A program made the translations under genes and the position numbers. Positions 1 through 59,310 of a DNA stretch of 59,310 bases are shown piece after piece. How positions within the stretch are numbered: the first letter of the stretch is position 1; every line of letters starts with the position of its first letter. The notes beneath the pieces are model-generated. The model was not told the DNA's origin. It worked only from the letters and a program-made list of their open reading frames with translations, and ran no database searches. Source of the DNA: a virus (taxonomy: Duplodnaviria > Caudoviricetes); IMG/VR virus record IMGVR_UViG_3300010366_000014, positions 1 through 59,310 of that record. One strand, 5' to 3'.

Positions 1-20
1 GTGCGATACCGGTGAACCGA
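1..20. repeat. Left arm of 20-bp inverted repeat at window ends
   Basis: GTGCGATACCGGTGAACCGA (1-20) is the exact reverse complement of 59291-59310. Confidence 0.95.
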
Positions 21-4981: not shown

Positions 4982-5126
4982 TAGCTGGTAGCTGCCACCG
5001 TGCCGGAGGATCCCGCCGTGCCGATATATAGCGTTCCGCCAAAGATTTGGGCGGGGCTAGGCACCCCGGAGGCCGCCGGCGTCATCGTATCCATCCCGAG
5101 TCGGGGAGTTGAATGAGGAGCATTGC

Positions 5127-8947: not shown

Positions 8948-9344
8948 AGGGGTCCGGATCGTCAATGAGACCGGCATGCCGCAGGATTTCATCGTCTACG
9001 ACGGCGAGACCGGCGAGCGCATCCACCGCGTGCGCGCCATCAGCCTCCATGCCGTCGCCGGCGAGCCGCCGATCGCCTCGATCGCCATCAACCTCCCCGA
9101 GGTCGATATTGCCATCGAGGCCGACATCCACGAGAGCAATGCGGAGATCGAGCGGCTGCGCACGCTCCTGACCGACGCGCGCGCGTCGCTCGCCTTCGTG
9201 CGCACGTGGAGTGAGGAGCCGGCCCTGCTCGCTCACACCGCGCCCCCGTCGCGTCTCCTTGACCACTTCTGGGCCTGGGCCGAGGGCTGGGACTGCGACT
9301 TGGAGCTGCGGATCGCGGCCGCGTTGGACCCGCCGGAAGAGTGA
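8934..9344 (+). CDS. Hypothetical protein
   Basis: GGAGG RBS then MLRRKGVRIV... Confidence 0.65.
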   Translation: MLRRKGVRIVNETGMPQDFIVYDGETGERIHRVRAISLHAVAGEPPIASIAINLPEVDIAIEADIHESNAEIERLRTLLTDARASLAFVRTWSEEPALLAHTAPPSRLLDHFWAWAEGWDCDLELRIAAALDPPEE

Positions 9345-9623
9345 GACGGCGTCTCAATGTCGCATAATGTCTCTTAGGCGACATTGCAAGCCCTTTTTTG
9401 TCCACTTTTCTGTCCATTTTCAGAACACCGACCCGAAAACAGCTCCGTGAAACACTCTGAGACGGGGTCTCGCGCGCTGTTCTACTCGAACGGTTGAAAA
9501 AGGGGGGTCAAATGCGGGGAAAAAGGGAAATAATCCCCTCCAAACCCGCTTTTTGCCCGATTTGAACCGATTTGAACCGACATTTCCGTATTTTCTGGCC
9601 AGATCGCGTCTGGAGGCCTCCTC

Positions 9624-18151: not shown

Positions 18152-18411
18152 CGTTGCCGCAGTACCAGCAAGACGAGCTGTACGACTTCTATTGCCAGTT
18201 CGGGAACCACGACGAAAAGGGCCGCGTGATCGGCCTCTTCCGCGCGCGCGCCTCCGTCACCGGACTGGAGCGGGACATCTCCTGGGCCGACTTCAAGGCC
18301 GGCAGGCTGCCGGCGGAGATGCGCGCCCAGGAGGCGAAAGAGGACGCGGCCGCGCGCTCCCACCGGACGCGACAGGCCGACGCGGTCTTCGGCATGCTCC
18401 TTGGTAGGTGA
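18079..18411 (+). CDS. Tail assembly chaperone GT extension via -1 frameshift
   Basis: GGTTTTTC at 18079-18086; the -1 frame is open from here (FSESRFRALVIGDRLGIVYTSILALPQYQQDEL...) to 18411. Confidence 0.75.
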   Translation, partial: GFSESRFRALVIGDRLGIVYTSILALPQYQQDELYDFYCQFGNHDEKGRVIGLFRARASVTGLERDISWADFKAGRLPAEMRAQEAKEDAAARSHRTRQADAVFGMLLGR

Positions 18412-24400: not shown

Positions 24401-24743
24401 CGGCACGGTGGGCGGCACGGCGATCGTCGGCGACTCACCGGGCGGCGACCTTTCGACGGCCGAGGTCGTGACGGGGAACTTCAACGTCATCCCGCACGAT
24501 CAGGCGGCGGCCTTGGGCTACATCCCGGGCGGCGGCATGGGCCGCTACCTCACCGGCGGCCAGGGCAACGGCGGCGACTCGTACACGCTGAACTTCAATG
24601 CCTCGGGCAACCGGGACAGCGATCAGGAGATGTTCGCCAAGCTCACCGAGTGGGTGGAGCAGCGCCAGCGTGCCAGTGACATCACCATCCGGCGCAACAG
24701 CCTGAGCGCGCGCTCCGCCGCGCAGGGCGGGCCGCGCTACTAA
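18408..24743 (+). CDS. Tape measure protein with lytic transglycosylase and NlpC/P60 domains
   Basis: 2111 aa; AFTQMLGS/FAISTPFQF tape-measure motif; SLT motifs IMHESGG and GLMQV; NlpC motifs YVYGG, GFDCSGYV, EHVAI. Confidence 0.95.
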   Translation: MKVDEDNLHIGITTDAEKAIQDLDRLDQKLEGLGQKRVKTQVEIDHEQAKRDLAELENLTARMRAQAVGIEVDVVGDADRDLQALIDDTKFLNASVVNVKVGLDTSEARRQLALYEQETARLALEKLGVTVTLEDQASKPLHEIELKIRELNAMRARVNLTATADSAPDPFEGLRREVAEIDNQTARMRAQKVGLQIDNAQAERSLQEVQLDTQKVNALVAQKRALEIDTTQASEGLGQTLQRLQAIVAYSAGYQAFHAIEQGAQAAMGAIIGFNDTLERTQIAFTQMLGSSSAATDMLAQLKQFAISTPFQFDGLTQSAQQLMAMGVAARDVIPDLTAIGDAVAGVAGDQEVLNRVVLAFGQISAAGKATAQDLRQLTQAGIPAYEMLAKALGTDVAGAMKQVTAGAVDSQTAIDALISGIEERSGGLMKAQMGTLQGQLSNLKDTMQQELADLGKPIFESVKQLVAGLGEGLSSEKFKAVATDIIQVVEELLGAFTKLAEFLANVPTGLIEWGIRAAEVAVGLRAINTVVGGVQTALRATATFFALETAATKADTVATEENTIAHVANAASRQSITMGGAIGAPIQSAVTATRGGLAAGTATAAEAAGALAMPVTVAATVLFVSAAIGDQIQQHLNKEAAKAHEQLRDQQLNFEVSAALNVAGVDSVTAEYEKLGRQIQQTTDMQKAFAQSSSGLANAVAPGLTGDINALKAAQAQVDPNYLQRQADEGLQKMMDQAKRSVEDIHGKGSTEEIAKNAQAAKDAILGMGTAYVMAHGDIEEFTKAVIAFNQAIDDQTIASQKRLVQQQQQHDQMVKDAAEIAKEASATGLAQPVDVMAGLEGTDKASADQIKLIKDHYSQLEQEQKDAQQRILESARKFDQDLSQAVQQAQQAVGRVDLSKGLTGLANVAPDLQKAQEALSELGRSSGALDNLTAIASSFQAITDAEHDASEAFDGYLTLFDETDRRIKVLDDLKKKLDDQVKAAQDAQKIGTATPEQTELLGKAATAYANIDAIRGRLQNNQIQDLFGMGQNVEDLLTADNTMRSIASQYGSMKDMRITVETNVKQVESDLDALTNKPRTVYLDVKTRGGTGGPGIDYAGGGDYGGTGSGFDPYGYARQMLGAGVGGNTATPRGDATALKQYYDIIQQAASTYHVDPTLIGAIIMHESGGTAGAVQQGGLGRGLMQVDLGQHPGENETLLTGTTREAVTYQIMEGAKILAQSLAAAGGDIAKGIQGYAGSAYVSQANQEFGVPAGLSFSQELSGYYTGPVGNVFAGGGGGGGATTNVSPQLPQVNRVSLTQPTSNPLAGSNINVAAMRKRAQELAGQAYVYGGGHSAGDTGGFDCSGYVAEVMRAGGINVPWTDAGGLYKWAQTSEGQAALAAAGIQLGFYNPGAGGMNEHVAINVGGDWFESGGMRGDTSGPSPNAAQGLNTFVGTPRALGGGGGGVAGLQTTGGGGAAGPFGTTNIFAESADSIAAATRAAEAQGKLQSAIDGAKNAQQAFNDSLKNVDPRNVANITEQFSKLLPVMQKAEQTKLPDNATALEKQTAIMTAYQKTYEGARLWGEAITEIDTGTGDLAATEQKIAETIGGPVSDAMKAQLDIMKEQKATADQIAMLTQRKSDLETQYKQIQQGEQDADRQRQRDQQLQQRQQQDADTQRQRSRTLEQRQIEDSRTAANRQYQAETDAIQNADRLRQVAHQNAMRGIEDRTNAENDGWTQRSRQLQQQQEQLQHYGTLQKQQLQDAQKARDEAHTADERQRSAQGQLYSVSARVSTTETSALYWGAAASALKDLQTTADELYQNQTDDNKKLQDEQDRAAAEQLYQLQQQVEAEQNAHEDRLKAIEKESTTLQRNYEDETNRLTEEADIRQKTHQMQMDLWQDEDTARQRAYEDEQFNIEQTRQQQQRANEDQQYALEQSRIAEQRQYEQALQSIDDEITAQKALAQEEQNRLDGAQRALSLWQQADNAVGDAAQTLLDALGSIGGLGTPTHKATGGTVGGTAIVGDSPGGDLSTAEVVTGNFNVIPHDQAAALGYIPGGGMGRYLTGGQGNGGDSYTLNFNASGNRDSDQEMFAKLTEWVEQRQRASDITIRRNSLSARSAAQGGPRY

Positions 24744-28009: not shown

Positions 28010-29896
28010 ATGGCGATCATCCGCAAGGAGGGTCACGTCACGTCCGCTCCGGTCACCGTCACCTTCGCGGGTGCGGGCTGGACCGGCGCGAACGCCGCGA
28101 ACCAGACCTACTCCGATCCGGCGTGCTCGGGCAGCAACATGTCATTCACGTACGGCGCAAACGATACCGCCACCTATGCGGTCGCGGCGGGATCCGGCTT
28201 CACGGGGTGCCTGCTCGTCGGTCGCTGCACCTACGCGGGTGATCCGAACATCACCGTGATCGTGGACGGCGTCACCCACGGCACGTGGAGCCAGCAGATC
28301 GTCACCCAGACAGCCGGGGTGCCGCAGTATTTCCTCTATTGGTACTTGTACAAACCGATCGACTGGATCACGACCGACCCGACCGGAGCGAACGCCCACA
28401 CGATCGTCGTGCGTTGTAGCGGCGGCGGGCAGCTCTGCATCGACTGCCTCGACTTCTATGACGCGGCGCGCAACGCCACCCTCGAATCCGTCTATGTCTT
28501 CGGGAACTCCCTCGCCTACGGCAGCGATCCGACCAACCCGCCCACGGGCCAGTACGCAAGCCCCGCCGGGATGGAGCTGGCCCGCCTCCTCGGCCTGGGC
28601 AGCGCGCTGAACGCGGGTGTCAATGCCGCCGATCTGACGAACGGGCAGAACGGCGCGTACGGCCCCGGTGGCGTGTCGAACATGCAGTTCTTCTCCAACG
28701 GCGCGGTCGCGCTCCCCGATTACTCGCGCGCCTACGGCAACTGGAACAATGACCAGCGGCGCTACGGCGTCCTCTTCCACCAGCACAATGATGTCGGCTA
28801 CAGCCAGCTCTACAACGATCCGGTCGGCTGGGGCTACACGGACAACCACTCGAATGGCGCGGCACCGTGGAAGTCGGGTTCCGTGATCTACTGGAACCCG
28901 CCGATCACCTCATCCGGTGGCAACGCCGTCTGGACGCTCAACTACAACAGCCTGACGACCGTCATCTCCTACACGGACGCTGTCTCCGTCATCAATAACA
29001 AGATGCAATCCGCGAACATCCCGTACACCTGTTTCCGGCTCGGACAGGATCAGTCAGTCGGGCCGGGGTGCTTCTACTTCATCGCCAACAACGCGCGTGC
29101 CGAGCCCGCCGGGGCAACGAACGGCCTGATTACCCAGACCAATGTGCTGAACGTCACCACCGGAGCGTACGGGCAGATTCAGCCGAACAACAATGAAACC
29201 GTCCTGCTCCATTCCGGTTCCGTCCCACCGACGAGCGGCACCTTCACGACCACCTGGGGGAGCAAGACCGCCACCCACAACGTCGGTGACACCGCCGCGC
29301 AGATGAACACCACCTTCGGCGCGGCGGGGTTGCCGTACAGCGCCGCCTCGATCACGGGCACCGCGCTGATCACCGCGAACAGCCTGCGCCAGTTCACCAG
29401 CAGTGCCTTCGCCTACGGCTCACACGGCTACCCGCTGACCTTCAACTTCGCCAACGTCCTGCCCGTGAACCACACGCTGACGGTTTCCAGCGATCTGGTC
29501 GTCGGTCGCAACGCGGCACCCGCCGGGACGGGCTGGGCGGAGAACCGTTTCTTTCTCCGCTTGCGCGAGATGCTCTGGCGGCGGCAGATGAGCGTGCGGG
29601 ACGGCTTCGTCCTCTGCGTGCCGTCCCCGCCCAGCAACGACCTGAACGTCGGCGCGAACCAGTACTACAACCTGCTGATCCAGCGGGCCTGCGCCGACCC
29701 GTCCGTCAAGAACGCGGTCTGTGTGGACATCTGGAATGCCCTCTCCAGCGGCAGCGGGCCGGGGAACAACCAGGGCACGATGAACGCGGACGGCGTCCAC
29801 TACACCCAGGCGGGACACAGTGTCGTCGGTTCCTTACTCTACGACGCGGTGCGGATGACGCGGCTCGAGCAGCAGAAAGTGCGCGCCGCGCGCTAG
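28010..29896 (+). CDS. Virion-associated SGNH/GDSL esterase-like protein
   Basis: VFGNSLAYG (block I), HNDV, DGVHYTQAGH (block V); large insertion between blocks. Confidence 0.75.
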   Translation: MAIIRKEGHVTSAPVTVTFAGAGWTGANAANQTYSDPACSGSNMSFTYGANDTATYAVAAGSGFTGCLLVGRCTYAGDPNITVIVDGVTHGTWSQQIVTQTAGVPQYFLYWYLYKPIDWITTDPTGANAHTIVVRCSGGGQLCIDCLDFYDAARNATLESVYVFGNSLAYGSDPTNPPTGQYASPAGMELARLLGLGSALNAGVNAADLTNGQNGAYGPGGVSNMQFFSNGAVALPDYSRAYGNWNNDQRRYGVLFHQHNDVGYSQLYNDPVGWGYTDNHSNGAAPWKSGSVIYWNPPITSSGGNAVWTLNYNSLTTVISYTDAVSVINNKMQSANIPYTCFRLGQDQSVGPGCFYFIANNARAEPAGATNGLITQTNVLNVTTGAYGQIQPNNNETVLLHSGSVPPTSGTFTTTWGSKTATHNVGDTAAQMNTTFGAAGLPYSAASITGTALITANSLRQFTSSAFAYGSHGYPLTFNFANVLPVNHTLTVSSDLVVGRNAAPAGTGWAENRFFLRLREMLWRRQMSVRDGFVLCVPSPPSNDLNVGANQYYNLLIQRACADPSVKNAVCVDIWNALSSGSGPGNNQGTMNADGVHYTQAGHSVVGSLLYDAVRMTRLEQQKVRAAR

Positions 29897-39118: not shown

Positions 39119-39463
39119 CTACCCTCTTCCTTTCACTTCGATCGTCCGGCCGCTGCTGCGGATCGCCGCGCTCGCCTCGAGGAACGCCTCCAGCGACGCG
39201 AGCGTGCGCTTCGCCTGGGCGATCGTGATCTGCGCCCGGGTCGTCACCGCGCCGAGCGTGAACGCGCAGCCGGCCAGGAGCGCCGCCAGGAGCCACGCGC
39301 CGTGTGGGTAGCGCACGCAGAGCCACGTCACGGCCGCTACCAGGGCGATAAAGGCGACGTGCTGCGCGATCAGCCAGCGCTGCGCCCGCGCGATCGCGAC
39401 GCGGGTCTGGGCGATCTGCGCCCGGGCGTCGGCCTCGTTGCGGGGCGCGAACATCGTGATCAC
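39119..39463 (-). CDS. Two-TM membrane protein
   Basis: Two hydrophobic helices. Confidence 0.65.
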   Translation of the reverse strand: MITMFAPRNEADARAQIAQTRVAIARAQRWLIAQHVAFIALVAAVTWLCVRYPHGAWLLAALLAGCAFTLGAVTTRAQITIAQAKRTLASLEAFLEASAAIRSSGRTIEVKGRG

Positions 39464-40491
39464 GAGGCTGTCCTCGGCGCTTTGACGCGGTAATCGTGCA
39501 TGCTGACCCCCTCCTTGGCGTTGCCGCGCACGTGGGGCGGCCGGAAGAACACGCCGGCGTATTTCCCAAACAAGCGCTTCCCGTCTTCATCGTGGTAGGT
39601 CACCAGGGTGCCCCGGACCAGATGCACCGGCATTTTCCGATCGTCGCCCGGACCGGGCAGCGTGGGCTTGCTCGTCCGGCTCGGGTCCACCACCACGGTG
39701 TGGTAGCGGACCAGGGGCTGCTCGTGTTTGCGCTCCCAGCTCCGCGCGAACTTCACCGGCGCGTGCGCGGCCGCCGGCGCGAGTGTGCCGTTGCGGAGAT
39801 TGAGGAACACCAGCGTGAGCAGGCAGGGGTGGATCCACAGCGGCGCTTCGTGGCCGAGGAGATCCACGTAGGGCTGGCCGGTGATGCTGGTCGCGTTGGA
39901 GAGCGCCGTGCAGAGGAACTTGGTGACCTTCCCGGCCGCGTCCACCGCGAGCCAGAAATGGCCGGCGACCAGGGCGAAGATCTCGGGCACGCCCATCAGC
40001 TTCGTCATCTCGTTGTCGCGGGCGTAGCCGATCGGTTGCAGCCGATAGAGCCAGCGCGCCCCCGCGACGAGATCGCGATAGGCGGCGAGCTGCTCGCGGC
40101 CCCAGAGCGCCACACCCTCCTCGGGGCTGACCGCGTCCACGAGCACGCCGGAGAACGGGAAGGTCGTGGTGGCCGGATCCGAGACCCCGTGGACCTCGGA
40201 GCGGACCGTGCTCGGCCGGCACCACTCGATCCAGAACTGCGGGAACGGCGGCACGAGTCCCGGGAAATCGTGATTGACATCCCAGTTCTCTTTGTCCGTT
40301 CCGGCATAATAGAACTCCGCAATATTATCGCCCACGATAACGGGCACGCCGCGCCGGAGCGCCTCGCCGATGCGGGTGCTGATCGCCCGGAGGACGGGCG
40401 TGGTGGATTGATCCATGGTGATCGGGTCGAAGCCGGGGACGAAGTCGAGGGCGCGGATGCGGTCGGCCAGACGGATAAGCGGGGCGGCCAT
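39460..40491 (-). CDS. Conserved phage protein, paralog B (C-terminal H-x-x-RG...H-x-RG...HDY motif)
   Basis: MAAPLIRLADRIRA...MPVHLVRGTLVTY...LFGKYAGVFFRPPHVRG...HDYRV. Confidence 0.8.
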   Translation of the reverse strand: MAAPLIRLADRIRALDFVPGFDPITMDQSTTPVLRAISTRIGEALRRGVPVIVGDNIAEFYYAGTDKENWDVNHDFPGLVPPFPQFWIEWCRPSTVRSEVHGVSDPATTTFPFSGVLVDAVSPEEGVALWGREQLAAYRDLVAGARWLYRLQPIGYARDNEMTKLMGVPEIFALVAGHFWLAVDAAGKVTKFLCTALSNATSITGQPYVDLLGHEAPLWIHPCLLTLVFLNLRNGTLAPAAAHAPVKFARSWERKHEQPLVRYHTVVVDPSRTSKPTLPGPGDDRKMPVHLVRGTLVTYHDEDGKRLFGKYAGVFFRPPHVRGNAKEGVSMHDYRVKAPRTAS

Positions 40492-41531
40492 CAGGTTTCC
40501 TTCTCTTTCGGTGGGCGGACATTGTAGTCGTGCAGGCTGACACCGGCGGACCGCTTGCCGCGCAAATGCTGGTGGATAAAGAACTTGCCGGCGTAGCGGC
40601 CGAACAGCAGGCCGCGCCCGTCGGTGCCGTACTCGGCCATGTGGCCGCGCACCATGTGGACGGGCATGACGCGGCCGGAGCCGGGACCGGGCAGGGGCGC
40701 GAGCGCCGTGCCGCCGCCCTGGACTTGGACGGTGCGATAGCGGACTAGGGGCTGGTCGTGCTTGCGCTCGTGGGCGCGCGCGAACTTCTCCGGCACCGGG
40801 AGGCCGGGGTCGGAGAGGCGGACGTTCTTGAGATTGAGGAAGGTGAGCGTCATCTGGATCGGGCCGGCGAACATGTCCGCCGATGCCGTGAGGAGCGACA
40901 TGTATTGGTCGCCCAGCGGCGAAGAGAGCTGTGCGCGCAGTTGCCGACCCTCCGCGTCCATGGCAACGAGGATGATCCCGTGCGGGATGAAGAGATCGCG
41001 CTCGATGAGCGCACAGGGGTAGATCGTCAGCACCCAGCGCGCGCCCTCGACAAACTCGTAGTAGGCGTCGGTGCCGGTTTCGATCGGCAGGAGGTCGCGC
41101 GGGTTCTCGAGGTCTTCCGCCATCACCAGCCCGCCCGTGAACGACGGCAGGTAGAAGTGCGCGCGATCGGCCGCGAGCACTTCCGGGGGCGGGCCGGCCA
41201 GCGCGCGCGCAGCGGCACCGAGCGCCCATTCGATCCAGAAGTCCGTGAACGGTGGCACGAGTGTCAGGGTTGTGGTGTCCAGCGAGCTACCGACCCCGTG
41301 GCGCTGCGCCTCGGTGAAATACCAGTCCGCGACGTTGTCCGCCACGATCACCGGCGTGCCCGTCTGAAGCATGCCCTGGATCAGCTCGAACTGATTGCGC
41401 AGCACCTCCGCGTTGCCGCCGAAGTCTTTCGTGCCGACCAGCGTCGGATCGAATGAGATCGGATCAAAGATCCTGGCCCGGGTCTCGTGCGCCCGGACGC
41501 GGTCCGCGAGTCGGATCATCGGTGCGCTCAT
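40491..41531 (-). CDS. Conserved phage protein, paralog A
   Basis: MSAPMIRLADRVRA...MPVHMVRGHMAEY...LFGRYAGKFFIHQHLRG...HDYNV. Confidence 0.8.
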   Translation of the reverse strand: MSAPMIRLADRVRAHETRARIFDPISFDPTLVGTKDFGGNAEVLRNQFELIQGMLQTGTPVIVADNVADWYFTEAQRHGVGSSLDTTTLTLVPPFTDFWIEWALGAAARALAGPPPEVLAADRAHFYLPSFTGGLVMAEDLENPRDLLPIETGTDAYYEFVEGARWVLTIYPCALIERDLFIPHGIILVAMDAEGRQLRAQLSSPLGDQYMSLLTASADMFAGPIQMTLTFLNLKNVRLSDPGLPVPEKFARAHERKHDQPLVRYRTVQVQGGGTALAPLPGPGSGRVMPVHMVRGHMAEYGTDGRGLLFGRYAGKFFIHQHLRGKRSAGVSLHDYNVRPPKEKET

Positions 41532-42006: not shown

Positions 42007-42228
42007 ATGGTCGAAGGATCGTTCTATACGGCCGCCCAGATGGCGGCGGCGCGGGGCGTGACGATCGGGGCGATCTATCAGGCCGTGCGCTCCGGCACGT
42101 TGCCGCGCCGCTATGCGCCGATCGCGCCCCCGCCGAGGGGGAATAAGTACATGCTCGTGTTCACCAGGGAGGAATACGAGGCCTACCGTGACGGGCTACC
42201 CGTCCCCGTCTCAGAGGCGCATCAGTGA
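42007..42228 (+). CDS. Excisionase-like HTH protein
   Basis: FYTAAQMAAARGVTIGAIYQAVRSGTLP. Confidence 0.7.
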   Translation: MVEGSFYTAAQMAAARGVTIGAIYQAVRSGTLPRRYAPIAPPPRGNKYMLVFTREEYEAYRDGLPVPVSEAHQ

Positions 42229-42606
42229 GCGCAGCCAGTTCCGGCGCGGCGTGTAGTCGCCGTCCGGGGTCGGGCGCAGGAGGGCCAGCTCTTTCTCGGC
42301 CGCGCCCAGCTCACGCGAGAGTCGCGCGACTTCCCCGAGCGTTGCCGCAGCCCAGGTGCGCATGAGGAAGCCGCTACCGGGGCTTGCCGGCTCGGGCACC
42401 GGCGGCGGCTGGGGAAGTTCCTTAGAAAGTTCCACAACTTCCTCGGCCGGTTCATCGACCGGGATCGCTTCCACGCCGGGGAGATCCACCAGCCACTCGC
42501 GGCCGACCATCACCGCAGCTATCCGCTTTTCCTCGATCCGCATCCGCACGCCCCGGGGCGTGATGCCCAGGATCGCTGCCGCCTCTTTCACCGTGAACTG
42601 CCCCAT
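42211..42606 (-). CDS. HTH_17/MerR-like DNA-binding protein with coiled coil
   Basis: FTVKEAAAILGITPRGVRMRIEEKRIAAVMVGREWLV; GGAGG RBS. Confidence 0.8.
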   Translation of the reverse strand: MGQFTVKEAAAILGITPRGVRMRIEEKRIAAVMVGREWLVDLPGVEAIPVDEPAEEVVELSKELPQPPPVPEPASPGSGFLMRTWAAATLGEVARLSRELGAAEKELALLRPTPDGDYTPRRNWLRSLMRL

Positions 42607-42629
42607 CGGAACCTCCCTCCTTGACCGCA

Positions 42630-42658
42630 ATCGTACAATGTGTACGGACGTTGTGCAA
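42630..42658 (-). promoter_or_regulatory. Sigma70-type promoter with overlapping palindrome
   Basis: Minus strand TTGCAC-17 nt-TACGAT; CGTACA-ATG-TGTACG at 42632-42646. Confidence 0.65.
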
Positions 42659-42736
42659 GCGTCGGGCATAAAAGATCGCCCCCACCCGTGGCAAGCGGGT
42701 AAACGGGGGCGCAAGCGACCTGAATAGGAGGTCTGC

Positions 42737-43108
42737 ATGGCTACTGTAACAGGTGAACGTACAGAAGGCAATCCCCCTGGCGGTATGAAGGTGCGGGTGC
42801 GCGACAAGCGCCAGCAGCCCTTCTTCATCGTCTACAACGATCTGGTGGACTGCCACCTCGCCCGCATGGGCATGAGCGCATACGTCGTTTACACCGCGCT
42901 CTGCCGCTTCGGCTGGAACGACAGTGTCCTGATCTCCTACACCCAGCTCGCTCGCCGGCTCGGGATCGCGCGCTCCACGCTCTGGCTCGCACTCAGCTAT
43001 CTCGAACGCGAGCGCTACATCACCGTCGAGCGCGAGATGGACGGGCCGGTGCATACCGCGAACACCTACTTCATCGAGGAGCTGCCGGAGTTATCCACAG
43101 GGGGGTAG
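42737..43108 (+). CDS. Winged-HTH replication initiator (Rep-like)
   Basis: FFIVYND...AYVVYTALCRF...SYTQLARRLGIARSTL...L..LE...YI...NTY; AGGAGG RBS; followed by iterons. Confidence 0.75.
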   Translation: MATVTGERTEGNPPGGMKVRVRDKRQQPFFIVYNDLVDCHLARMGMSAYVVYTALCRFGWNDSVLISYTQLARRLGIARSTLWLALSYLERERYITVEREMDGPVHTANTYFIEELPELSTGG

Positions 43109-43279
43109 TTCGAAATTCGAACTAGGGGTAGTTCGAAATTCGAACTAGGGGTAGTTCGAAATTCGAACTGTATTAAAGACATAGAGAGAAGACATGGGAA
43201 GAAGACGGGACGACTACGAGCGCGCGCGTGCGCGCGTAGGGGAGATCTTTTCCACAAACTTATCCACGAGTTATCCACA
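43091..43279. promoter_or_regulatory. Replication origin 1: three 23-bp palindromic iterons and four DnaA boxes
   Basis: GGGGTAGTTCGAAATTCGAACT(A/G) x3 at 43102-43170. DnaA boxes: TTATCCACA at 43091 and 43271, TTTTCCACA at 43248, TTATCCACG at 43260. A-rich stretch between. Confidence 0.85.
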
Positions 43280-43481
43280 TGGGTCTCCGGTCACCGATGC
43301 GCGCACATGAAAGCCGGAGTGTTTTCACTCTCCGGCAGTTCTGTTGCCAGTGGCACGCTTCGATCCTAGAATAGCTCCCACGTCCGAAACGAATGGGGGT
43401 GGCGCATGGCAGGCGCGTCTGACCGGCACCCACGGAACCTTGAGGAAACCGATGACGACATCCGGCTCCAGCTCTGGGCGT

Positions 43482-44006
43482 TCACGCGGAACCGTTTACG
43501 CGCTCGCGCGGCCGTGACTGCTCTTGATCGAGACGGGACACCGTTGCCGCTGTGGGTGACGCCACGGATCGAGGCGTGGACGCGGGACGATCTCGCCGGC
43601 GCGGACGCGCCGCAATGGCTGCCTGCTGGAGCTTGAGATTGTCCGTGTGAATCTTCTTGAGCATCGGCCCGCCGAGCGTCTGGAGCCAGCTCCGGAACTC
43701 CACGAGGTCGTCGGCCGTGATCGTCGCGGCGAAGTCGTCCTCGAGCGAGAACAGCTCGCGGATCCTCAGGTCGCGCCAGTCCGCCGGCGGCGGCTCGAGA
43801 TCGAAGAACGGGTAGAACCGCCGCAGCTCCGCCTCCGGCACGCCGAAGAGGCGCGCCAGCGCGGGGATGTGGTTCGGGTGCGGGATCGTCTCCCCCTTGA
43901 GCCACTTCTTCACCGACGGCGCGGTGATCCCCAAGGCGGCCGCAAGGCGCGCCATAGTCCATTCCCGCTCGGCCAACTTCTCAGTCAGCCAACTGCTGAA
44001 ATCCAT
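43482..44006 (-). CDS. XRE-family immunity repressor (CI-like)
   Basis: FSSWLTEKLAEREWTMARLAAALGITAPSVKKWLKGETIP...LARLFGV; divergent from a Cro-like gene. Confidence 0.85.
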   Translation of the reverse strand: MDFSSWLTEKLAEREWTMARLAAALGITAPSVKKWLKGETIPHPNHIPALARLFGVPEAELRRFYPFFDLEPPPADWRDLRIRELFSLEDDFAATITADDLVEFRSWLQTLGGPMLKKIHTDNLKLQQAAIAARPRRRDRPASTPRSVASPTAATVSRLDQEQSRPRERVNGSA

Positions 44007-44188
44007 GACACCCTCCCATGTCCGGCGCGGCACCCCCCGGTACACCGCTACGACCAAAACCCCTCCAACACTCCACTGACCGTTGTATTGCCCGTTTCCG
44101 TTGCCCTCGTTCAAATCGCGACGGTGACACAGGTTACGGTGGGAAAGGCCACTGCCCGAGCAGTTGCGCCGATCCAACTATGATCGAG

Positions 44189-44336
44189 TTACCTGAGTAT
44201 CTTAGCACAAGTCGCAAGTGACGCCCCGAGCGATCCCCCGCCCCGCGCGCCCTCCCGCAAGATCCGGGCCGACCCCGCGTGTCCGTACATCTAGACGGGT
44301 GTTACATGAGGGTATAGGCTGACCATACCAGAGTAT
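44189..44336. promoter_or_regulatory. Divergent switch region with ATAC-N4-GTAT-type operators and rightward promoter
   Basis: TTACCTGAGTAT at 44189-44200, ATACCAGAGTAT at 44325-44336; TAGACG-17 nt-TAGGCT at 44292-44320. Confidence 0.6.
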
Positions 44337-44357
44337 GCATCCGGGGGAGGTCGCCCG

Positions 44358-44609
44358 ATGGAACGGGAGTCTCGCTATTTCGTCTCCGCCGCGTTCTGGC
44401 ACTGGTGCCACGAGAACGACGTGTCGCTGCGCGAGCTGGGCCGGCTGTCCGGCTACAGCGGCACGTTCCTCGGCAGTGTGCGCAGCCACGGCCACTACAC
44501 CGTCTCGCAGCGCTTCGTGGACGCGGTGCTGCGCGAGCTATTGCTGCCCGAGGGCATGCTCTTCTTCCGCCCCGCCGGCTACCGGTGGCGGCTCCGACTC
44601 GCCGCGTAA
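44358..44609 (+). CDS. Cro-like HTH protein
   Basis: VSLRELGRLSGYSGTFL...LPEGMLF; GGAGG RBS. Confidence 0.75.
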   Translation: MERESRYFVSAAFWHWCHENDVSLRELGRLSGYSGTFLGSVRSHGHYTVSQRFVDAVLRELLLPEGMLFFRPAGYRWRLRLAA

Positions 44610-44611
44610 AT

Positions 44612-44640
44612 CGACCGGGTGTGCTCGCACCCGGTCGTTT
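44612..44640 (+). terminator. Intrinsic terminator-like hairpin after cro
   Basis: CGACCGGGTG-tgctcg-CACCCGGTCG-TTT; short U tract. Confidence 0.55.
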
Positions 44641-44773
44641 CGCCTGCCATTCGCTGCAAGAAAGGAGGACAGTCTCATGATAGGCGACCCTATCCCACCT
44701 GTCAAGTAACTCGCCTGATACTAGGGATCCTTTGATCCCCTGGCTACCGCCATGTCTCCGGAAGGAGGTCTCG

Positions 44774-45067
44774 ATGGCATCGGAAGTGACACCCCGCTGG
44801 TGGGGGACATTCGAGCTGGAACGGCGCACGGAGCAGGAGGCGCGGGACGCCAAGCGCGCCGTGCAGGAGCGCGACTACCGGCAGGCGCTGCTGGCCGACG
44901 TAATCCGCGACGGCGAGAGTTTCGTGCAGCAGCTTCGCGCGCATTTCACCCACGCGAGCCAACTCTCCAGCGAGGACATCGCGGCGCTGCGGGCGGGCGC
45001 GGTGACGCTGGGCACCCAGCTCGCGGCCGTAGAGAGCGCGCTCGCGTTCGCGGAGAAACTGCAATGA
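44774..45067 (+). CDS. Hypothetical protein
   Basis: AAGGAGG RBS. Confidence 0.7.
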   Translation: MASEVTPRWWGTFELERRTEQEARDAKRAVQERDYRQALLADVIRDGESFVQQLRAHFTHASQLSSEDIAALRAGAVTLGTQLAAVESALAFAEKLQ

Positions 45068-45759
45068 CGGAGCAGCCGCAGCCGGCACCGGAGTTCGACG
45101 CCTCACGCTACCTGCGCACGATCAAGGTGCGCGGCGGCGGCGAGGCCCAGTACCTGCCGGCGGCGGCCCGGATCCTCTGGGCGCGGCACGATCACCCGAC
45201 GGCGCAGATCGTCACGGAGATCGTGCTCGCCTCCGAGAACATGGCCCGGTTCAAATGCACGATCACCCTGCCGACCGGCGCGGTCGCCACCGGCCACGGC
45301 CAGGAGACGGCGAGCAGTTTCGCGGACTTTTTCGAGAAGGCCGAGACCGTCGCCGTCTCCCGCGCCCTGGCGATCCTCGGCTACGGCACCGAGGGCGCGT
45401 ACGACCTCGAGGACCGGCAGCCCGAGCAGACCGGCCGCGCCAGCACCGGCGATCGGGTGCGGAAGACCGACCCGATGCACGGATCGGCGGCGAGCTGGTT
45501 CCGCCGCGAGCTGCCCCGTCGCGGCATGACGCTGCCGCAGCGCTTCGAGCTGTGGGGCGATGTCGTCGGCGTCCTCGACTCCGCCGGCCACGCGGTCGGC
45601 GAGGCGAGCGACGAGCGCGGCATCGACTTCGCGGCCGTCAAGGCGATCGTGGAGGCGCTCCCGCTCAGCAAATTCCCGGGCGCGGAGGTCGTCCCGGCCG
45701 CCGAGCAGAAGCCGATCCAGCGGCAACGCGCGCAGCGCTCCGGCGGAGGGGACGAGTGA
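45064..45759 (+). CDS. Rad52/Sak-like single-strand annealing protein
   Basis: YLPAAARILW...VATGHG.E...FEKAETVAVSRALAILGYG. Confidence 0.8.
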   Translation: MTEQPQPAPEFDASRYLRTIKVRGGGEAQYLPAAARILWARHDHPTAQIVTEIVLASENMARFKCTITLPTGAVATGHGQETASSFADFFEKAETVAVSRALAILGYGTEGAYDLEDRQPEQTGRASTGDRVRKTDPMHGSAASWFRRELPRRGMTLPQRFELWGDVVGVLDSAGHAVGEASDERGIDFAAVKAIVEALPLSKFPGAEVVPAAEQKPIQRQRAQRSGGGDE

Positions 45760-45764
45760 GTGCC

Positions 45765-46568
45765 ATGAGCGAGGAAGCTACGCGCTGGGCGTGGGGCATC
45801 CGTGGCCTCGACCTCGGTCCCCGCGTCATCCTCCAGGCACTGGCCTGGATCGCCGACGCCACCGGTGCCGGGGAGATCAAGCTTGAGACCCTCGGCTTCA
45901 TGGCCGATTGCAGCCGGTCCACCGTGCAGCGCCACATGCGCGTGCTTGAGGACGGCCAGCTCGTCACCCGCGAGCAGCAACACGGTCGTGGCCGCACGAG
46001 CCGGTTCCAGCTCACCATGCCGGAAAAGGTGTCAGCGCTGACACCTTATCGCCCCGAAAACGTGTCAGAAAACGTGTCAAAAAACGTCGCACCTTTGACA
46101 CGTTATCCCGAAAACGTGTCAACAAACGTGTCAGCGCTGACACCTTTTCCTGCGTCTACGCACGCGGGCGCGCCTGTGCGCGGAGAAGTTATTACCCAGG
46201 AAGAAGTCTTCAGAGAAGAGAGATACGGGGCGCGCTCTCTGAACGGCCGGGAAAGTCCCCAAGGCGCGCGCGCACGCGAGGTGGCGGCATACGAACCTGC
46301 GGGCGATTTGATCCAGCACCTCCTGGCCCGGGGCATGACGATCGATGAGGTGATCGCGGCGCTCGTCCAATGGCGGGAGGTCCGCACCCGCAACGAGGGC
46401 GTGGTCAGTGACGCCAACTTCCGCGTCTACTGCCTCCAGACCTACCTGCCCCGGATCCTCGGCCGCGATCCCCTGCCCGACATGCGCCACCCCGCGCCCT
46501 CGAAACGGATGGCGGAGAACCTCGCCACCGGCATGAACTGGCAACCGCCGGAACGGAGGCGGCAATGA
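45765..46568 (+). CDS. Phage replication initiator (HTH_36, lambda O-like architecture)
   Basis: EATRWAW...RVILQALAWIAD...CSRSTVQRHMRVLEDGQLV; internal iterons. Confidence 0.85.
   Translation: MSEEATRWAWGIRGLDLGPRVILQALAWIADATGAGEIKLETLGFMADCSRSTVQRHMRVLEDGQLVTREQQHGRGRTSRFQLTMPEKVSALTPYRPENVSENVSKNVAPLTRYPENVSTNVSALTPFPASTHAGAPVRGEVITQEEVFREERYGARSLNGRESPQGARAREVAAYEPAGDLIQHLLARGMTIDEVIAALVQWREVRTRNEGVVSDANFRVYCLQTYLPRILGRDPLPDMRHPAPSKRMAENLATGMNWQPPERRRQ
46023..46148. repeat. Replication origin 2: iterons inside the initiator gene
   Basis: Repeated AAA(C/G)GTGTCA units and two GTGTCAGCGCTGACAC palindromes. Confidence 0.8.
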
Positions 46569-46786
46569 TGAAACCGTTGCCCGAGACCCATCTGGTCGTC
46601 GTCACCCATCTCTACGATCGGCTCGGCGGCTATCTCAACGACGTGGCGACCGAGTCGTCCATCGTCGTGGTGGAGCGCTACAAGACACCGGTCGCGGCGC
46701 TGATCTCGATCGGCCAGCTCAACGAGTACGCCCGGTTGCGTCAGGCGGAGCAGCAGCGCCAGGAGGCGGAGGAGGCGCGCGAATGA
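46565..46786 (+). CDS. Phd/YefM antitoxin-like protein
   Basis: LGGYLNDV...IVVVERYKTPVAALIS. Confidence 0.7.
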   Translation: MMKPLPETHLVVVTHLYDRLGGYLNDVATESSIVVVERYKTPVAALISIGQLNEYARLRQAEQQRQEAEEARE

Positions 46787-47386: not shown

Positions 47387-47736
47387 TGTACGCCATCTGG
47401 ACCTTCGTGATGAAAGAGCGCCGGGTGCCGGTCGGGTCGGGGATCGCGACGATGTACCCGGACATCGAGCTGTGGGAACCGTGCCCGGACGGGTGGAACG
47501 GCGAGCGCGCCCGTGCCCGGGCGGAGAAACTCTCGCAGCGATCGGGCGGGGTCTTCGTCGTCCGCCGCAAGCTCTCCGGCGACAAGTGGAGCGACGTGCC
47601 GAAGGACGACTGGCAGCGCGGCATCACCGCAGCCCAGCATCTCTATCGCGAGGATCAGGCCAGAAAGGCCCAGCGAAGGCTCCAGAAGCGTCTCTCGCAG
47701 GCGGGGATGCCACCACCGAAGGCGGATGGGTCATGA
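47386..47736 (+). CDS. Hypothetical protein
   Basis: GGAGG RBS, TGATG overlap. Confidence 0.65.
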   Translation: MYAIWTFVMKERRVPVGSGIATMYPDIELWEPCPDGWNGERARARAEKLSQRSGGVFVVRRKLSGDKWSDVPKDDWQRGITAAQHLYREDQARKAQRRLQKRLSQAGMPPPKADGS

Positions 47737-48311
47737 GTGCCGAACGCCCCGTACGGACGACTACAGCGCGAAATCCGCATTATGCGTACGTACAGCGTCG
47801 TCGGCTCTGGGGCGCGCTCGCGGTGGTCTTGTATTTCCTGAGCATCTGGCTCGCCAACTGGCTGATCGTCCGCTTCGGTCTCGTCCCGGTCGGCTTCGGC
47901 CTGCGCGCGCCGGCGGGGGTGTTCGTGGCGGGCGCGGCTTTCGTCCTGCGGGACGTGGTGCAGGAGGAGCTGGGCCTGGGCTGGGTGCTGCTGGCGATCG
48001 CGGCGGGCGCGGTCCTCTCGACGGCCGTGGCACCGGTGCGGATCGCCCTCGGCTCGGGGCTGGCATTCCTCTTCTCGGAGCTATGTGACCTCGGTGTCTA
48101 CACGCCGCTGCGCCGCCGGAGCTGGGTGGCGGCGGCCGTGCTCTCGAACACGGTGGGCGACCTCGTGGACTCGGTGTTGTTCCTGACGATCGCCTTCGGG
48201 ACGCTGGCGAACGTGCTCGGGCTGATCGTCGGGAAATGGTACGTCACCCTCCCGATCGTCGTGTGGTGGGGCATCCGCCACGCGGGAAAGGAGCTGTCAT
48301 GGCAGTCCTGA
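47733..48311 (+). CDS. VUT (Vut_1/YhhQ-like) queuosine-precursor transporter family protein
   Basis: LANW...VPVGFGL.APAGV..AG..FVLRDVVQ...AFLFSELCDL.VYTPL...SN.VG..VDS..FL.IAFG...GK. Confidence 0.85.
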   Translation: MSAERPVRTTTARNPHYAYVQRRRLWGALAVVLYFLSIWLANWLIVRFGLVPVGFGLRAPAGVFVAGAAFVLRDVVQEELGLGWVLLAIAAGAVLSTAVAPVRIALGSGLAFLFSELCDLGVYTPLRRRSWVAAAVLSNTVGDLVDSVLFLTIAFGTLANVLGLIVGKWYVTLPIVVWWGIRHAGKELSWQS

Positions 48312-48709
48312 TCGCGGCCACGGTCCTGCTGACACCGGTGGGGTCGGCGCAGATGGAGGTCGGCAACGCGGCGTACTACGCGCCGAGCTTCGACACCGGC
48401 AGCCCCTCGGGCTGGGAGCGGATCATCCAGCGGCGGGTGGACTGGGGCCAGATCGACGCGGAGACGTTCCCGTACTCCGGCGATGGGTACTACTGCGTGC
48501 ACCCCGGCTCGGACCTGGGCGACCAGCTCCACGTGATGAACGCGATCACCGGCGAGTCGGTGGTCTGCACGGTGGCGGACGCGGTCGCGCCGCGCGACAT
48601 GGCGCACTGGCAGTCCAGCGTGGTGATCGAGCTGAGCTACGCGGCGTACGTGGCTGCGGGCGGCAAGGCGTTCAATCGCTTCGTGGTCTGGGAGGCCGAT
48701 GATGGCTAA
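48299..48709 (+). CDS. RlpA-like double-psi beta-barrel secreted protein
   Basis: Signal-like N-terminus, GNAAYY, G.SVVCTVAD, IELSYAA. Confidence 0.7.
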   Translation: MAVLIAATVLLTPVGSAQMEVGNAAYYAPSFDTGSPSGWERIIQRRVDWGQIDAETFPYSGDGYYCVHPGSDLGDQLHVMNAITGESVVCTVADAVAPRDMAHWQSSVVIELSYAAYVAAGGKAFNRFVVWEADDG

Positions 48710-48974
48710 CCCGGACGTGGTGTCGAGCACCGTGTTCCAGCGGGCGATCGGCACTTACCTCGACGCGGCCCGGTCCGACGATCGCACCTATCTGGTCACA
48801 GCCCACAACCGGCCGGTCGCGGTGTTCATGTCGATCCGCGAGTACAACCGGCTCAAGCAGTGCGAGGCGCTGACGCGACACGAGTTGGCACGAGGGGGAG
48901 ACGCAGATGGAAGAATGGCCAATGGAGCAACTGACACCGGACCCACGGAACCGGGAGATCTTCGACCCGGTTGA
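48699..48974 (+). CDS. Phd/YefM antitoxin-like protein
   Basis: VVSSTVFQRAIGTYLDAA...YLVTAHNRPVAVFMSIREYNRL. Confidence 0.8.
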   Translation: MMANPDVVSSTVFQRAIGTYLDAARSDDRTYLVTAHNRPVAVFMSIREYNRLKQCEALTRHELARGGDADGRMANGATDTGPTEPGDLRPG

Positions 48975-50052
48975 GGGCGACGATTTCGAGGCGCTCGTGG
49001 AGAGCATCCGCACGAACGGCATCATCAACCCGATCAGCATCACCGCGACGGGGCTGATCATCGCCGGTGAGCAGCGCTACCGGGCGGCGCGCACACTCGG
49101 GCTGGAGACGGTGCCGGTGATCGTCCACTACGATCTGGACGATGACGACCCGAAGGTAACGCTCCTGCGGGTGGACGAGAACATCCGCCGGCGCTCGCTG
49201 AAGATCTCCGAGACGGCCCGCGCGGTGAAGGCGTGGCACGACGCGACGGCGAAGCCGGTCGGGACCAACCGGTACACGAACGGTAGCTCATCGACCGTCG
49301 ATGAGCTAGAAATGCCCGAGGCGATCGCGAGCATGTCCCCCTCCACGCGCACCATTTACACCAAGCTCGCCGCGCTGATCGAGCCGCTCGCGTTCATGCT
49401 CGACACGAAACAGATTGGCACCCAGGTGGCCTATCAGCTCGCGCAACTGAGCAAGGAGAACCAGGAGGCGCTCGCTGCGGCCACGAGCGAGGAAGAACTT
49501 GCGGAGCTGACGGAGTCCGATGCGAAGGAACTGAAAGAGCGGCTGAAGGCGCGGGACGCGGAGGTCGCGGAGCTGCATCGTCGCCTCGAGCAGACGGCGG
49601 AAGGGCAGCAGTCGCTCGACATCATGGGTCTGGCGCTCGCGGGCATGCGCGAGCAGCACGCGAAGGAGCTGGCCGCGCTGGAGGCGAGCGTCGAGGATCG
49701 CGTGGCGGAGCGGACCGAGCACTTCGAGGCGGAGGCGGACGCGGCGGACGCGGCCCGGGCGCGCAGCGAGCAGTTGGTGACGACGCTGCGCGCCCGGATG
49801 AACTACGAGGCGAAGGATCCGGTCCACAACGCGATCAAGCTCTTGGTCGGGGTGATCGCCTCGGGGCCGGAGGCGCATGCACGCTTCACGATCCAGCTCG
49901 GCGAGCAGGACGGGTTTATGTGGCCGTTCATCGACATGGACGCGCAGCAGGCGCTCTCGGTCGCGAACGTGCTGACGGAGTACTCACGTCTCTTACGCGC
50001 GGCGCTCGATGAGAAGGGGTTGAGCATCAGCGGGCTAAGGAGCCTCACATGA
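48907..50052 (+). CDS. ParB N-terminal domain protein with coiled coil
   Basis: LVESIRTNGIINPI...IIAGEQRYRAA..LG...VP...DENIRRRSL. Confidence 0.85.
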   Translation: MEEWPMEQLTPDPRNREIFDPVEGDDFEALVESIRTNGIINPISITATGLIIAGEQRYRAARTLGLETVPVIVHYDLDDDDPKVTLLRVDENIRRRSLKISETARAVKAWHDATAKPVGTNRYTNGSSSTVDELEMPEAIASMSPSTRTIYTKLAALIEPLAFMLDTKQIGTQVAYQLAQLSKENQEALAAATSEEELAELTESDAKELKERLKARDAEVAELHRRLEQTAEGQQSLDIMGLALAGMREQHAKELAALEASVEDRVAERTEHFEAEADAADAARARSEQLVTTLRARMNYEAKDPVHNAIKLLVGVIASGPEAHARFTIQLGEQDGFMWPFIDMDAQQALSVANVLTEYSRLLRAALDEKGLSISGLRSLT

Positions 50053-59290: not shown

Positions 59291-59310
59291 TCGGTTCACC
59301 GGTATCGCAC
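59291..59310. repeat. Right arm of 20-bp inverted repeat at window ends
   Basis: TCGGTTCACCGGTATCGCAC is the reverse complement of 1-20. Confidence 0.95.

Follow-up and report, generated by a model that had tools for sequence, protein, structure and literature searches.

How does a phage that carries an apparent lysogeny switch and no recognisable integrase maintain its prophage? The question is raised by a segment at 42.2-43.3 kb of IMG/VR record IMGVR_UViG_3300010366_000014, an uncultivated soil phage whose whole record of 59,310 bases we analysed (hereafter, the window). An initial annotation, made from the sequence alone, had described here a small winged-helix "Rep" gene, three 23-bp palindromic iterons and four DnaA boxes downstream of a CI-like repressor, and had proposed a probable phage-plasmid. 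With moderate confidence, we favour the reading that this segment is a DnaA-assisted, lambda-type prophage-maintenance replicon, which stands in the place of an integrase and keeps the prophage as a plasmid. The features on which this reading turns are the following.

42007-42228, plus strand: small helix-turn-helix (HTH) protein of 73 aa, bounding the slot on its far side (weak match to HTH_17, E 0.085)
42211-42606, minus strand: HTH_17/excisionase-family DNA-binding protein of 131 aa (PF12728, E 2.7e-6; TIGR01764, 34.1 bits, cut-off 28.8)
42607-42736, no strand assigned: divergent regulatory region with a palindrome, CGTACAATGTGTACG (42632-42646), a leader hairpin (~42677-42711) and a ribosome-binding site (RBS)
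42737-43108, plus strand: putative one-domain winged-helix initiator of 123 aa with a lambda-O/DnaD-type N-domain (PHROG initiator families)
43091-43099, plus strand: DnaA box 1 (TTATCCACA), within the last codons of the 123-aa gene
43102-43170, no strand assigned: three 23-bp iterons, each GGGG plus the 19-bp palindrome TAGTTCGAAATTCGAACTA (repeat search and Tandem Repeats Finder, TRF)
43171-43215, no strand assigned: A-rich, purine-rich stretch of low GC content, a candidate unwinding element (GC profile, conservation)
43248-43279, plus strand: DnaA boxes 2-4 (TTTTCCACA, TTATCCACG, TTATCCACA), head to tail, their starts 12 and 11 bp apart
43482-44006, minus strand: CI-like repressor of 174 aa (HTH_3, E 1.3e-9; PHROG repressor families)
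44358-44609, plus strand: cro-like gene that opens the rightward early operon and diverges from the CI-like gene (weak phrog_30822 match only)
45765-46568, plus strand: full-length O-like initiator of 267 aa (phrog_391, 2.1e-7)

The winged-helix gene, the iterons and the DnaA boxes all lie where the initial annotation had placed them, and their clustering is not random. The iteron units are 100/100/96% identical (68/69 positions; TRF score 136), and their 17-nt core, with up to 3 mismatches allowed, is found in the window at these three sites only, against 0.08 expected. The TAG of the first iteron, at 43106, serves as the stop codon of the 123-aa gene. Together with the TAGs at 43129 and 43152, which stand in the other two frames, it leaves none open across the array. 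The GC minimum of the region (43%) lies at 43100-43199, and the A-rich stretch that follows the iterons includes a 13-bp tandem repeat (43176-43206, TRF). TTWTCCACA, which we take to be the DnaA box consensus, occurs exactly at 43091, 43248 and 43271, each time on the plus strand (0.14 expected in the window; 0 of 100 shuffles reach three), with TTATCCACG at 43260, and four of the seven matches that the window holds at one mismatch or fewer are inside these 189 bp. A 22-nt tract of alternating G/C, GAGCGCGCGCGTGCGCGCGTAG, lies at 43218-43239, between the A-rich stretch and the three downstream boxes.

Among viral contigs, the exact iteron palindrome had a single match, in the unrelated low-GC phage L081. 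In this 62-kb contig it lies at 5001-5019, with a near copy at ~5369-5387, both just 3' of repeated promoter-like sequences, and it is probably an operator there that is identical by chance.

Compared with Pfam, the 123-aa protein gave weak matches to generic winged-helix families (HTH_24, E 3.5e-4; HTH_36, 6.8e-3). Compared with PHROGs, its residues 17-117 matched initiator families, namely phrog_270 (5.1e-8), the DnaD-like phrog_186 (2.1e-6) and the O-like phrog_678 (2.1e-5), with phrog_18020 also among them. No Rep-family Pfam match was found at E<=0.01 among the 76 open reading frames (ORFs) of the window, which were called from third-position GC (GC3) bias, and a length of 123 aa leaves room for one domain only. 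Judged from these profiles, the protein is a one-domain O/DnaD-type N-domain and not a plasmid Rep; the earlier label was correct as to an initiator-type winged helix and has to be given up as to the Rep. The protein ends at residue 123, without the C-terminal domain for helicase-loader recruitment, and when its relatives were compared by tblastn with 43100-43700, where a C-terminal remnant might lie, the best E was 0.01.

A phmmer search of 1.84 billion representatives returned 155 proteins at E<=1e-3, four of them at E<=1e-10. In the best 150 of the 155, which range from ~100 to 1450 aa, the matched domain is mostly N-terminal. Sampled relatives have peptide repeats straight after the winged helix (PSPETELTLVQ, PSAPDELALVQ, GGSSPNEL), and these read as translated iterons inside the initiator gene. 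The only close relative in the 90% clusters was the protein itself (called there from M17), none was found by alignment in viral contigs, and tblastn against 50,697 cultured phage records gave no match. Three weak matches came from a plasmid collection (27-28% identity, E ~1e-3; Bacillus cereus-group plasmids), and a sequence search of the PDB gave nothing below E 0.2. A homodimer model of residues 17-123 reached a median score of 0.44, against 0.00 for the best of 3 controls, with a partner predicted local distance difference test (pLDDT) of at least 75 and with runs that agreed in at least 89% of contacts. Calibration of the tool had put 20 of 30 solved homodimers at this mark, as against 1 of 23 single chains; with an alignment of our own as input, these counts hold only roughly. 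The predicted dimer fits dyad-symmetric sites and, as a model, supports binding to them.

The nearest initiator group (the P0005 group, on metagenome contigs L093-L095) is 40-46% identical to the 123-aa protein (alignment A1). When the DNA was aligned, the iterons of these contigs fell in register with those of the window at the 23-bp period (TAGTCCAGAAACTGAACTA versus TAGTTCGAAATTCGAACTA), and GTATTAAAGA(C) plus a purine-rich stretch, directly after the last iteron, was kept in the window and in L093, L094 and L095. Since the iterons are in register and this stretch is conserved, the origin is homologous and not just similar in layout. The initiators of L093-L095 read through four iterons into a tail of ~60 aa, which the window protein is without, and DnaA box 1 of the window sits where L094 has the first of its four iterons. 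None of G005, G006 (the relatives described below) or the five loci L093-L097 has a DnaA box. The 11.8-kb L094 contig, on which no phage genes were seen, carries an HTH_17 gene, a 202-aa initiator, a WYL-domain gene and a 996-aa protein without a Pfam match (L094:2807-5797, minus strand; 8678-9734, plus strand); by eye, the 996-aa protein looks like a primase-helicase.

Where this origin stands became apparent from two related phages, G005 and G006, which were reached via homologs of the unassigned protein encoded at 39460-40491 and with which the window proteins were compared by tblastn (76 queries). G005 has 56,557 bp (CheckV 99), and G006 has 57,245 bp with a 123-bp direct terminal repeat (CheckV 100, circular assembly). 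The structural genes are common to all three (31-73% identity; to G005 and G006, respectively, 73% and 69% for the large terminase TerL, 61% and 60% for the portal and 61% and 64% for the capsid), and the matched early genes are 29-63% identical. The early genes that the window and G006 have in common are the cro-like gene, the CI-like gene, the gene at 45064, the O-like initiator, the gene at 46838, and the Phd-like, VRR-NUC and 51676 genes; G005 has the same early genes as G006, except the ParB-like one.

One slot differs between the three phages. It is bounded by the CI-like gene and by the conserved small HTH gene (42007-42228 in the window), homologs of which, 43-46% identical, flank it in G005 and G006. 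In G005, the slot holds a 405-aa tyrosine integrase (PF00589, 1.9e-22; phrog_1, 9.8e-60). G006, in which neither PF00589 nor PF00239 matched at E<=1 and a scan of 46 ORFs revealed no recombinase, has in its slot an HTH_17 gene divergent from a 187-aa initiator (phrog_6493, 1e-39; phrog_11233, 5.4e-20), with palindromic repeats (TCGCGGAATCGCGATCTC twice, with TCGCGAATTCGCA-type neighbours) and an AT-rich stretch inside the initiator gene, and an RPA/SSB-like gene next to it. The window slot holds the HTH_17/excisionase-family gene divergent from the 123-aa initiator and its origin, in inverted orientation relative to G006. Across these three genomes, tblastn found the integrase in G005 only and each slot initiator in its own genome only, and the winged-helix family profile found in G005 the early-operon O-like gene alone. 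The integrase of G005 bears out the earlier remark that the cassette lies downstream of the repressor in an integrase position. As a replacement for the integrase, the cassette most likely serves to maintain the prophage as a plasmid. An integrase is also carried by G001, a head-gene relative at greater distance, and a portal scan gave 3 short contigs only.

Could the window phage have a recombinase elsewhere? Six-frame searches of the window gave no match to the integrase, recombinase and transposase families PF00589, PF00239 and PF00665 or to the protelomerase family PF16684 (all at E<=10), nor to the ParA families PF13614 (E<=10) and PF01656 (E<=1), and the controls of all these searches did match. 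PF02914 had no match in the window, and its control matched nowhere either. Integrase and ParA Pfam families were likewise absent from the 76 ORFs at E<=0.01. After these hidden Markov model (HMM) searches of all ORFs and all frames, the initial statement that no tyrosine or serine recombinase and no ParA is recognisable stands. No parS-like repeat cluster was seen in the window, and no toxin was recognised beside its Phd-like antitoxin. Scans with NCBIfam and PADLOC brought nothing beyond the excisionase-family, Phd and ParB-domain matches.

We then considered how the cassette might be regulated. The HTH_17 protein at 42211-42606 is its probable regulator: by tblastn, the gene has a homolog in G006 and none in the integrase-bearing G005, so this "excisionase-like" protein goes with replication cassettes and not with the integrase. 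An HTH_17 gene also lies upstream of the related initiator on L094; by BLASTP, the small HTH proteins of the window showed no similarity to those of that contig. The intergenic DNA between the HTH_17 and initiator genes has 76% column identity between the window and G006, and this alignment takes in the RBS and the ATG and reaches the fourth codon, beyond which the two slot initiators are unrelated. The leader hairpins of the window and G006 (L121, ~1870-1898) have z scores of -2.55 and -3.71 and differ by paired changes. This conserved hairpin lies 5' of two unrelated initiator genes and might act as an attenuator or, as the target of an antisense RNA, in copy control. The motif TCCGTACA, which occurs only at 42641-42648, in the cassette regulatory region, and at 44282-44289, between the CI-like and cro-like genes, was considered as a shared CI operator; 16 of 100 shuffles gave at least two matches, and it is not relied on. 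GTAC-rich palindromes are found at the matching place in G006.

The divergent CI-like and cro-like genes point to lysogeny control in this phage, and the same pair adjoins the integrase in G005. The CI-like homologs, in the same place in G005 and G006, are 31-32% identical, and the cro-like ones 44-46%. Near the 3' end of the CI-like gene, 43344-43636 (plus strand) comprises a promoter-like site (TTGCCA-17-TAGAAT, 10/12) followed by a 76-aa ORF that runs antisense into the repressor gene; this ORF matches no family and is without homologs in G005 and G006, and its reality is doubtful. In the cro-side operon, the separate O-like initiator with internal repeats was found as the initial annotation had described it: its gene contains 12-bp repeats and inverted repeats (D1, D2, I1) at 46011-46153 and a GC dip to 49% at 46050-46149, and homologs with 29-34% identity are present in G005 and G006. 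BLASTP found no likeness between this protein and the 123-aa protein. The phage has two unrelated sets of initiator and sites, at 42737-43279 and at 45765-46568; position and synteny suggest that the former serves lysogeny.

Taken together, these data suggest the following course of events. In a lysogen, the CI-like repressor would silence the cro-side operon, including the full-length O-like initiator and its in-gene origin. The cassette, with its own divergent promoter region, would remain under the HTH_17 protein and perhaps also the leader hairpin. A dimer of the 123-aa protein would bind the three dyad-symmetric 19-bp sites at 23-bp spacing, as lambda O does at ori-lambda, and such binding would put stress on the adjacent A-rich stretch. 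Because the protein is without the C-terminal domain, helicase recruitment would pass to host DnaA, bound to box 1 on the gene side of the array and to the three phased boxes beyond it. In favour of a probable phage-plasmid, as proposed, speak the second replicon by the immunity switch, the missing integrase and the slot synteny with G005 and G006; a partition ATPase, which is common in phage-plasmids and not obligatory, was not found.

The remainder of the genome comprises the features listed below.

1-20, no strand assigned: left arm of a 20-nt terminal inverted repeat
1-1284, minus strand: RPA/SSB-like OB-fold protein, phrog_2319, running off the contig without a stop codon
5.1-34.9 kb, plus strand: large terminase, Mu-type portal, capsid, tape measure and tail genes (Pfam)
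35.1-41.5 kb, minus strand: genes of unassigned function
44.4-52.1 kb, plus strand: rightward early operon
48907-50052, plus strand: ParB_N-domain protein of 381 aa in the early operon (PF02195, 3.8e-12; phrog_4715, 3.3e-27; TIGR00180 below cut-off)
52.7-59.3 kb and 0-4.2 kb, minus strand: unassigned leftward genes
59291-59310, no strand assigned: right arm of the terminal inverted repeat

The window has a GC content of 66% and no tRNA genes in its 59,310 bases, and 54 of the 76 ORFs are without a Pfam match. Its virion and packaging gene set is complete by Pfam (TerL, Mu-type portal, capsid, tape measure and other tail genes), and cultured phages are remote, with portal identities of at most 28%. 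The tape measure protein (18408-24743, plus strand; 2111 aa) has SLT and NlpC/P60 domains, and the tail protein at 28010-29896 a GDSL esterase domain. Adjoining the slot, 39460-40491 and 40491-41531 (minus strand) encode tandem paralogs of phrog_20769, ~40% identical, with homologs in G005 and G006. As a cryptic recombinase this pair was rejected: Foldseek gave no match at E<=1e-3, and the best VIA match was AcrVA2. In the AlphaFold2 (AF2) model (pLDDT 79.5), AcrVA2 (7ci1_A) was the sole standout structural match (Z 6.2, root-mean-square deviation 5.1, 184 aligned; second-best match, Z 3.6), which hints weakly at a fold of the anti-CRISPR type.

In the early operon, a Phd/YefM-family antitoxin gene (48699-48974, plus strand; PF02604, 3.6e-11; TIGR01552 above cut-off) overlaps the start of the ParB_N gene, and a second ORF at 46565-46786 (plus strand) matches the same family weakly (E 0.034); such ORFs have homologs in G005 and G006. 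The ParB_N protein has a homolog in G006, and no ParB-like match was obtained in G005. The same operon encodes a Vut_1/queuosine-precursor-transporter-like membrane protein (47733-48311, plus strand; PF02592, 5.4e-12; TIGR00697 below cut-off), which had no tblastn match in G005 or G006. A search of viral contigs for relatives of 45064-45759 found none.

As for the host, the Chloroflexota of the initial annotation are at most a candidate phylum: one genome link was found, a 13-kb contig of one Chloroflexota metagenome-assembled genome (MAG) with 52% TerL identity, and among 401 sampled genomes of that phylum a capsid relative occurred in one, the MAG's own genome.

The contig ends bear on whether the record is whole. 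They form an exact 20-nt inverted repeat, with no direct repeat, and the 20-mer has no match among viral contigs. The comparison assembly consisted of Logan k=31 contigs of run X1, which is probably the source sample and hence not independent. There, one contig extends 10 nt beyond position 1 and another begins 10 nt before the other repeat copy, the two having 30 nt (k-1) in common; the terminal repeat therefore continues for at least 10 nt in the reads, to a length of at least 30 nt, and the 20 nt of the record may be the k-1 of a k=21 graph. Three models remain for the ends. The genome may be circular or permuted and contain a perfect palindrome, it may end in hairpins, or the inverted repeat may be longer and enclose a piece that did not assemble. 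Joined, the ends would give a 40-bp perfect palindrome over the last codons of the SSB-like gene; on a reading of the sequence, this gene would then stop after five codons and be followed by an RBS-like stretch, with the start of the next gene 22 nt on. The ends fall within a variable block, 10.7 kb long in G005 and 4.5 kb in G006 and uninterrupted in both, which favours a direct join. We consider it fairly probable that they do join directly and that the record, which IMG classes as "linear" and CheckV estimates as 100% complete, is probably complete. An insertion sequence is a less likely source of the repeat, as no target duplication is visible and removal of the repeat would fuse two genes in frame.

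The SSB-like protein at the end belongs to a family (phrog_2319) listed as "unknown function" in PHROGs. Its AF2 model (pLDDT 81) has OB-fold single-stranded DNA binders as best Foldseek matches (archaeal SSB, RPA domains), on which ground a protelomerase or recombinase beside the contig end was rejected, and alignment A4 shows an invariant Cys/His cluster (C136, H138, C139, C165). The gene is common to the window and G006 (70% identity; L121:2533-3855), where it lies directly 3' of the slot initiator, and is not in G005; its homology to G006 ceases about where the terminal repeat starts. Otherwise, its relatives comprise 12 loci at ~30% identity, without synteny, and unnamed viral clusters in Atlas, and a sequence search of the PDB gave nothing below E 0.2.

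The preferred reading has to be weighed against several others. The cassette could be a working origin for lytic or early replication, a second start dependent on host DnaA, in a phage that is virulent or lysogenises by an unrecognised route. Both initiators are indeed phage-type (O/DnaD-like) by PHROGs, neither a partition ATPase nor an addiction toxin was found, and many ORFs are of unassigned function (54 of 76 without a Pfam match). We nevertheless judge it unlikely, given that the cassette lies outside the cro-side operon with a regulator of its own and fills the slot of the G005 integrase, and that G006, the other integrase-less relative, also has an extra slot initiator, whereas G005 has the early-operon one only. 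The open reading frame that stops in the first iteron, where relatives read through theirs, raises the further thought that a mobile replicon once inserted here is decaying and has left this remnant, with a stop that shortens its initiator, and that the integrase is on an unassembled piece or the phage is non-lysogenic. In line with this would be the terminal inverted repeat, which the reads extend by at least 10 nt, and the related module on L094, an element that does not look like a phage. Decay, however, does not give iterons identical at 68 of 69 positions and three exact-consensus boxes; the RBS, ATG and leader are conserved with G006, no residual C-terminal coding is found downstream, the integrase of G005 is in the slot and not in the variable block that holds the window's ends, and the joined ends give a tidy stop-RBS-start junction, all of which makes a remnant quite unlikely.

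Alternatively, the truncated initiator and the iterons might not replicate at all and form an exclusion or incompatibility device that titrates or blocks the initiators of incoming related elements. The 123-aa protein being a DNA-binding domain only would suit such a device, metagenomic elements with homologous iterons exist, and a plasmid-borne lambda ori fragment with iterons excludes rep-lambda phages (Hayes 2012, PMC3349717). Yet titration needs neither four consensus DnaA boxes nor a conserved A-rich stretch, the iteron sequence of the window differs from that of its known relatives, and the exact palindrome is in no related viral contig, its one match being unrelated; we hold this to be very unlikely. 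Finally, palindromic sites and a predicted dimer are typical of repressors, Pfam gives generic winged-helix families only, and the same 19-bp palindrome stands at two promoter-like places in the unrelated L081, so the palindromes might be operators for the 123-aa protein acting as a transcription factor, and the DnaA boxes might modulate transcription near the repressor gene. The sites, however, are at the 3' end of a gene and not at a promoter, no other copy is present in the window, the PHROG names of the family are those of replication initiators, and the layout of iterons and A-rich stretch is that of ori-lambda (PMC7466680) and conserved in relatives; this explanation is highly improbable.

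Several observations weigh against a maintenance replicon. Neither a ParA nor a toxin to go with the Phd-like antitoxin was found, which would leave stable inheritance of a plasmid without an explanation. A one-domain initiator is atypical and could be inactive or an inhibitor. The comparison rests on three genomes, and the inversion of the cassette relative to G006 shows independent events and not a conserved design. Given the terminal inverted repeat, at least 30 nt long in the reads, part of the genome may be absent from the contig; the iteron copy number comes from one assembly, as the second (k=31) breaks inside the array and does not confirm the count. The DnaA box consensus is presumed here and not derived from the host. 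In the Chloroflexota MAG, where a host oriC-type cluster was sought, the strict box was no commoner than a control pattern, with 7 scattered matches against 6. As the homologous origins of L093-L095, and G005 and G006, are without DnaA boxes, an involvement of DnaA would, on sequence, be unique to this phage.

How does the proposed maintenance replicon compare with known systems? Lambda iterons are dyad-symmetric. As in lambda, the origin is inside the initiator gene in L094 and G006; in the window, the gene stops at the first iteron. Further differences from lambda are that the window protein lacks a C-terminal domain to engage a P-type helicase loader, that the sites have DnaA boxes on their flanks and that the module stands outside the early operon. 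With lambda O and ori-lambda (PMC7466680), the cassette has in common an N-terminal winged helix, ~19-bp sites at ~23-bp spacing and an adjacent AT-rich stretch, a likeness in architecture. Lambdoid O/ori regions replicate as plasmids, according to the same source. In the iteron plasmids of the Rep_3/RepA type (P1, F, pPS10), DnaA boxes are common to the window, while the two-winged-helix Rep protein is not.

P1 has two replicons; its RepA, of the Rep family, binds direct 19-bp iterons as a monomer, and ParAB/parS and Cre/lox are beside it. The window phage would be like P1 in having two replicons and a maintenance origin with initiator sites, an AT-rich part and DnaA boxes on both flanks, and unlike it in that its sites are palindromic, no Rep-family Pfam match was obtained, and no partition ATPase or recombinase was found. 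The comparison with P1 made in the initial annotation is therefore apt for the architecture, and not for the initiator, which is lambda-O-type with dyad sites where P1 has a RepA type with direct iterons. With regard to linear plasmid prophages of the N15 type, no protelomerase was found in the window, and the inverted repeat at its ends fits a palindrome and equally an assembly break. The plasmid replicon of P1 (oriR/RepA), as distinct from its lytic replicon, is named in PMC7157519 and PMC7969092.

Integrase-less actinobacteriophages keep dedicated prophage origins (Wetzel 2020, PMC7157519), RepA-type in Miko, Rachaly and Jeeves and RNA-based in RedRock, Alma and others. Like these phages, the window phage would be a temperate siphovirus without an integrase, with a separate prophage replication function in the lysogeny region and with integrating relatives. 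They differ in that the actinobacteriophages have parABS, where the window has ParB_N only and no ParA was found; in that their initiators are RepA-like or RNA-based, where the window has a putative one-domain O/DnaD-type winged helix plus DnaA boxes; and in that their plasmid state comes from experiment, where that of the window phage is inferred. Phage-plasmids need no integrase, and the hosts given for them in the passages of Pfeifer 2021 (PMC7969092) considered here are Firmicutes, Actinobacteria and Proteobacteria, with 0 occurrences of "Chloroflexi" in its main text. The window phage resembles the phage-plasmids of that text in combining a phage gene set and a plasmid-like replication function without an integrase, and departs from them in having no cultured relative (portal identity at most 28%).

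A broader picture, which we put forward tentatively and consider doubtful as a whole, is that this clade has a lysogeny "socket" by the repressor that accepts either an integrase or one of several replication cassettes, which share the HTH_17 regulator and the structured leader and differ in initiator and origin. The window origin, of the lambda type with an initiator pared down to its DNA-binding domain and with helicase recruitment ceded to host DnaA, would then be a natural hybrid of phage and chromosomal parts. Together with the implied end palindrome and the RPA-like protein, it could underlie a plasmid of unusual form in a high-GC soil host not yet cultured.

Phage-plasmids are already known, as are prophages that have a maintenance origin and no integrase, and the kind of element is not new. 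For high-GC soil bacteria without genetic tools, the cassette is a compact candidate replicon of ~1.3 kb. In a lineage without a cultured member, three syntenic phages that differ in one slot, holding an integrase or one of two cassettes, make the switch between integrative and plasmid lysogeny testable. Moreover, the combination of a minimal one-domain binder of the lambda-O type with consensus DnaA boxes, in an origin whose nearest relatives have a C-terminal tail and no boxes, suggests how the route of helicase recruitment can change.

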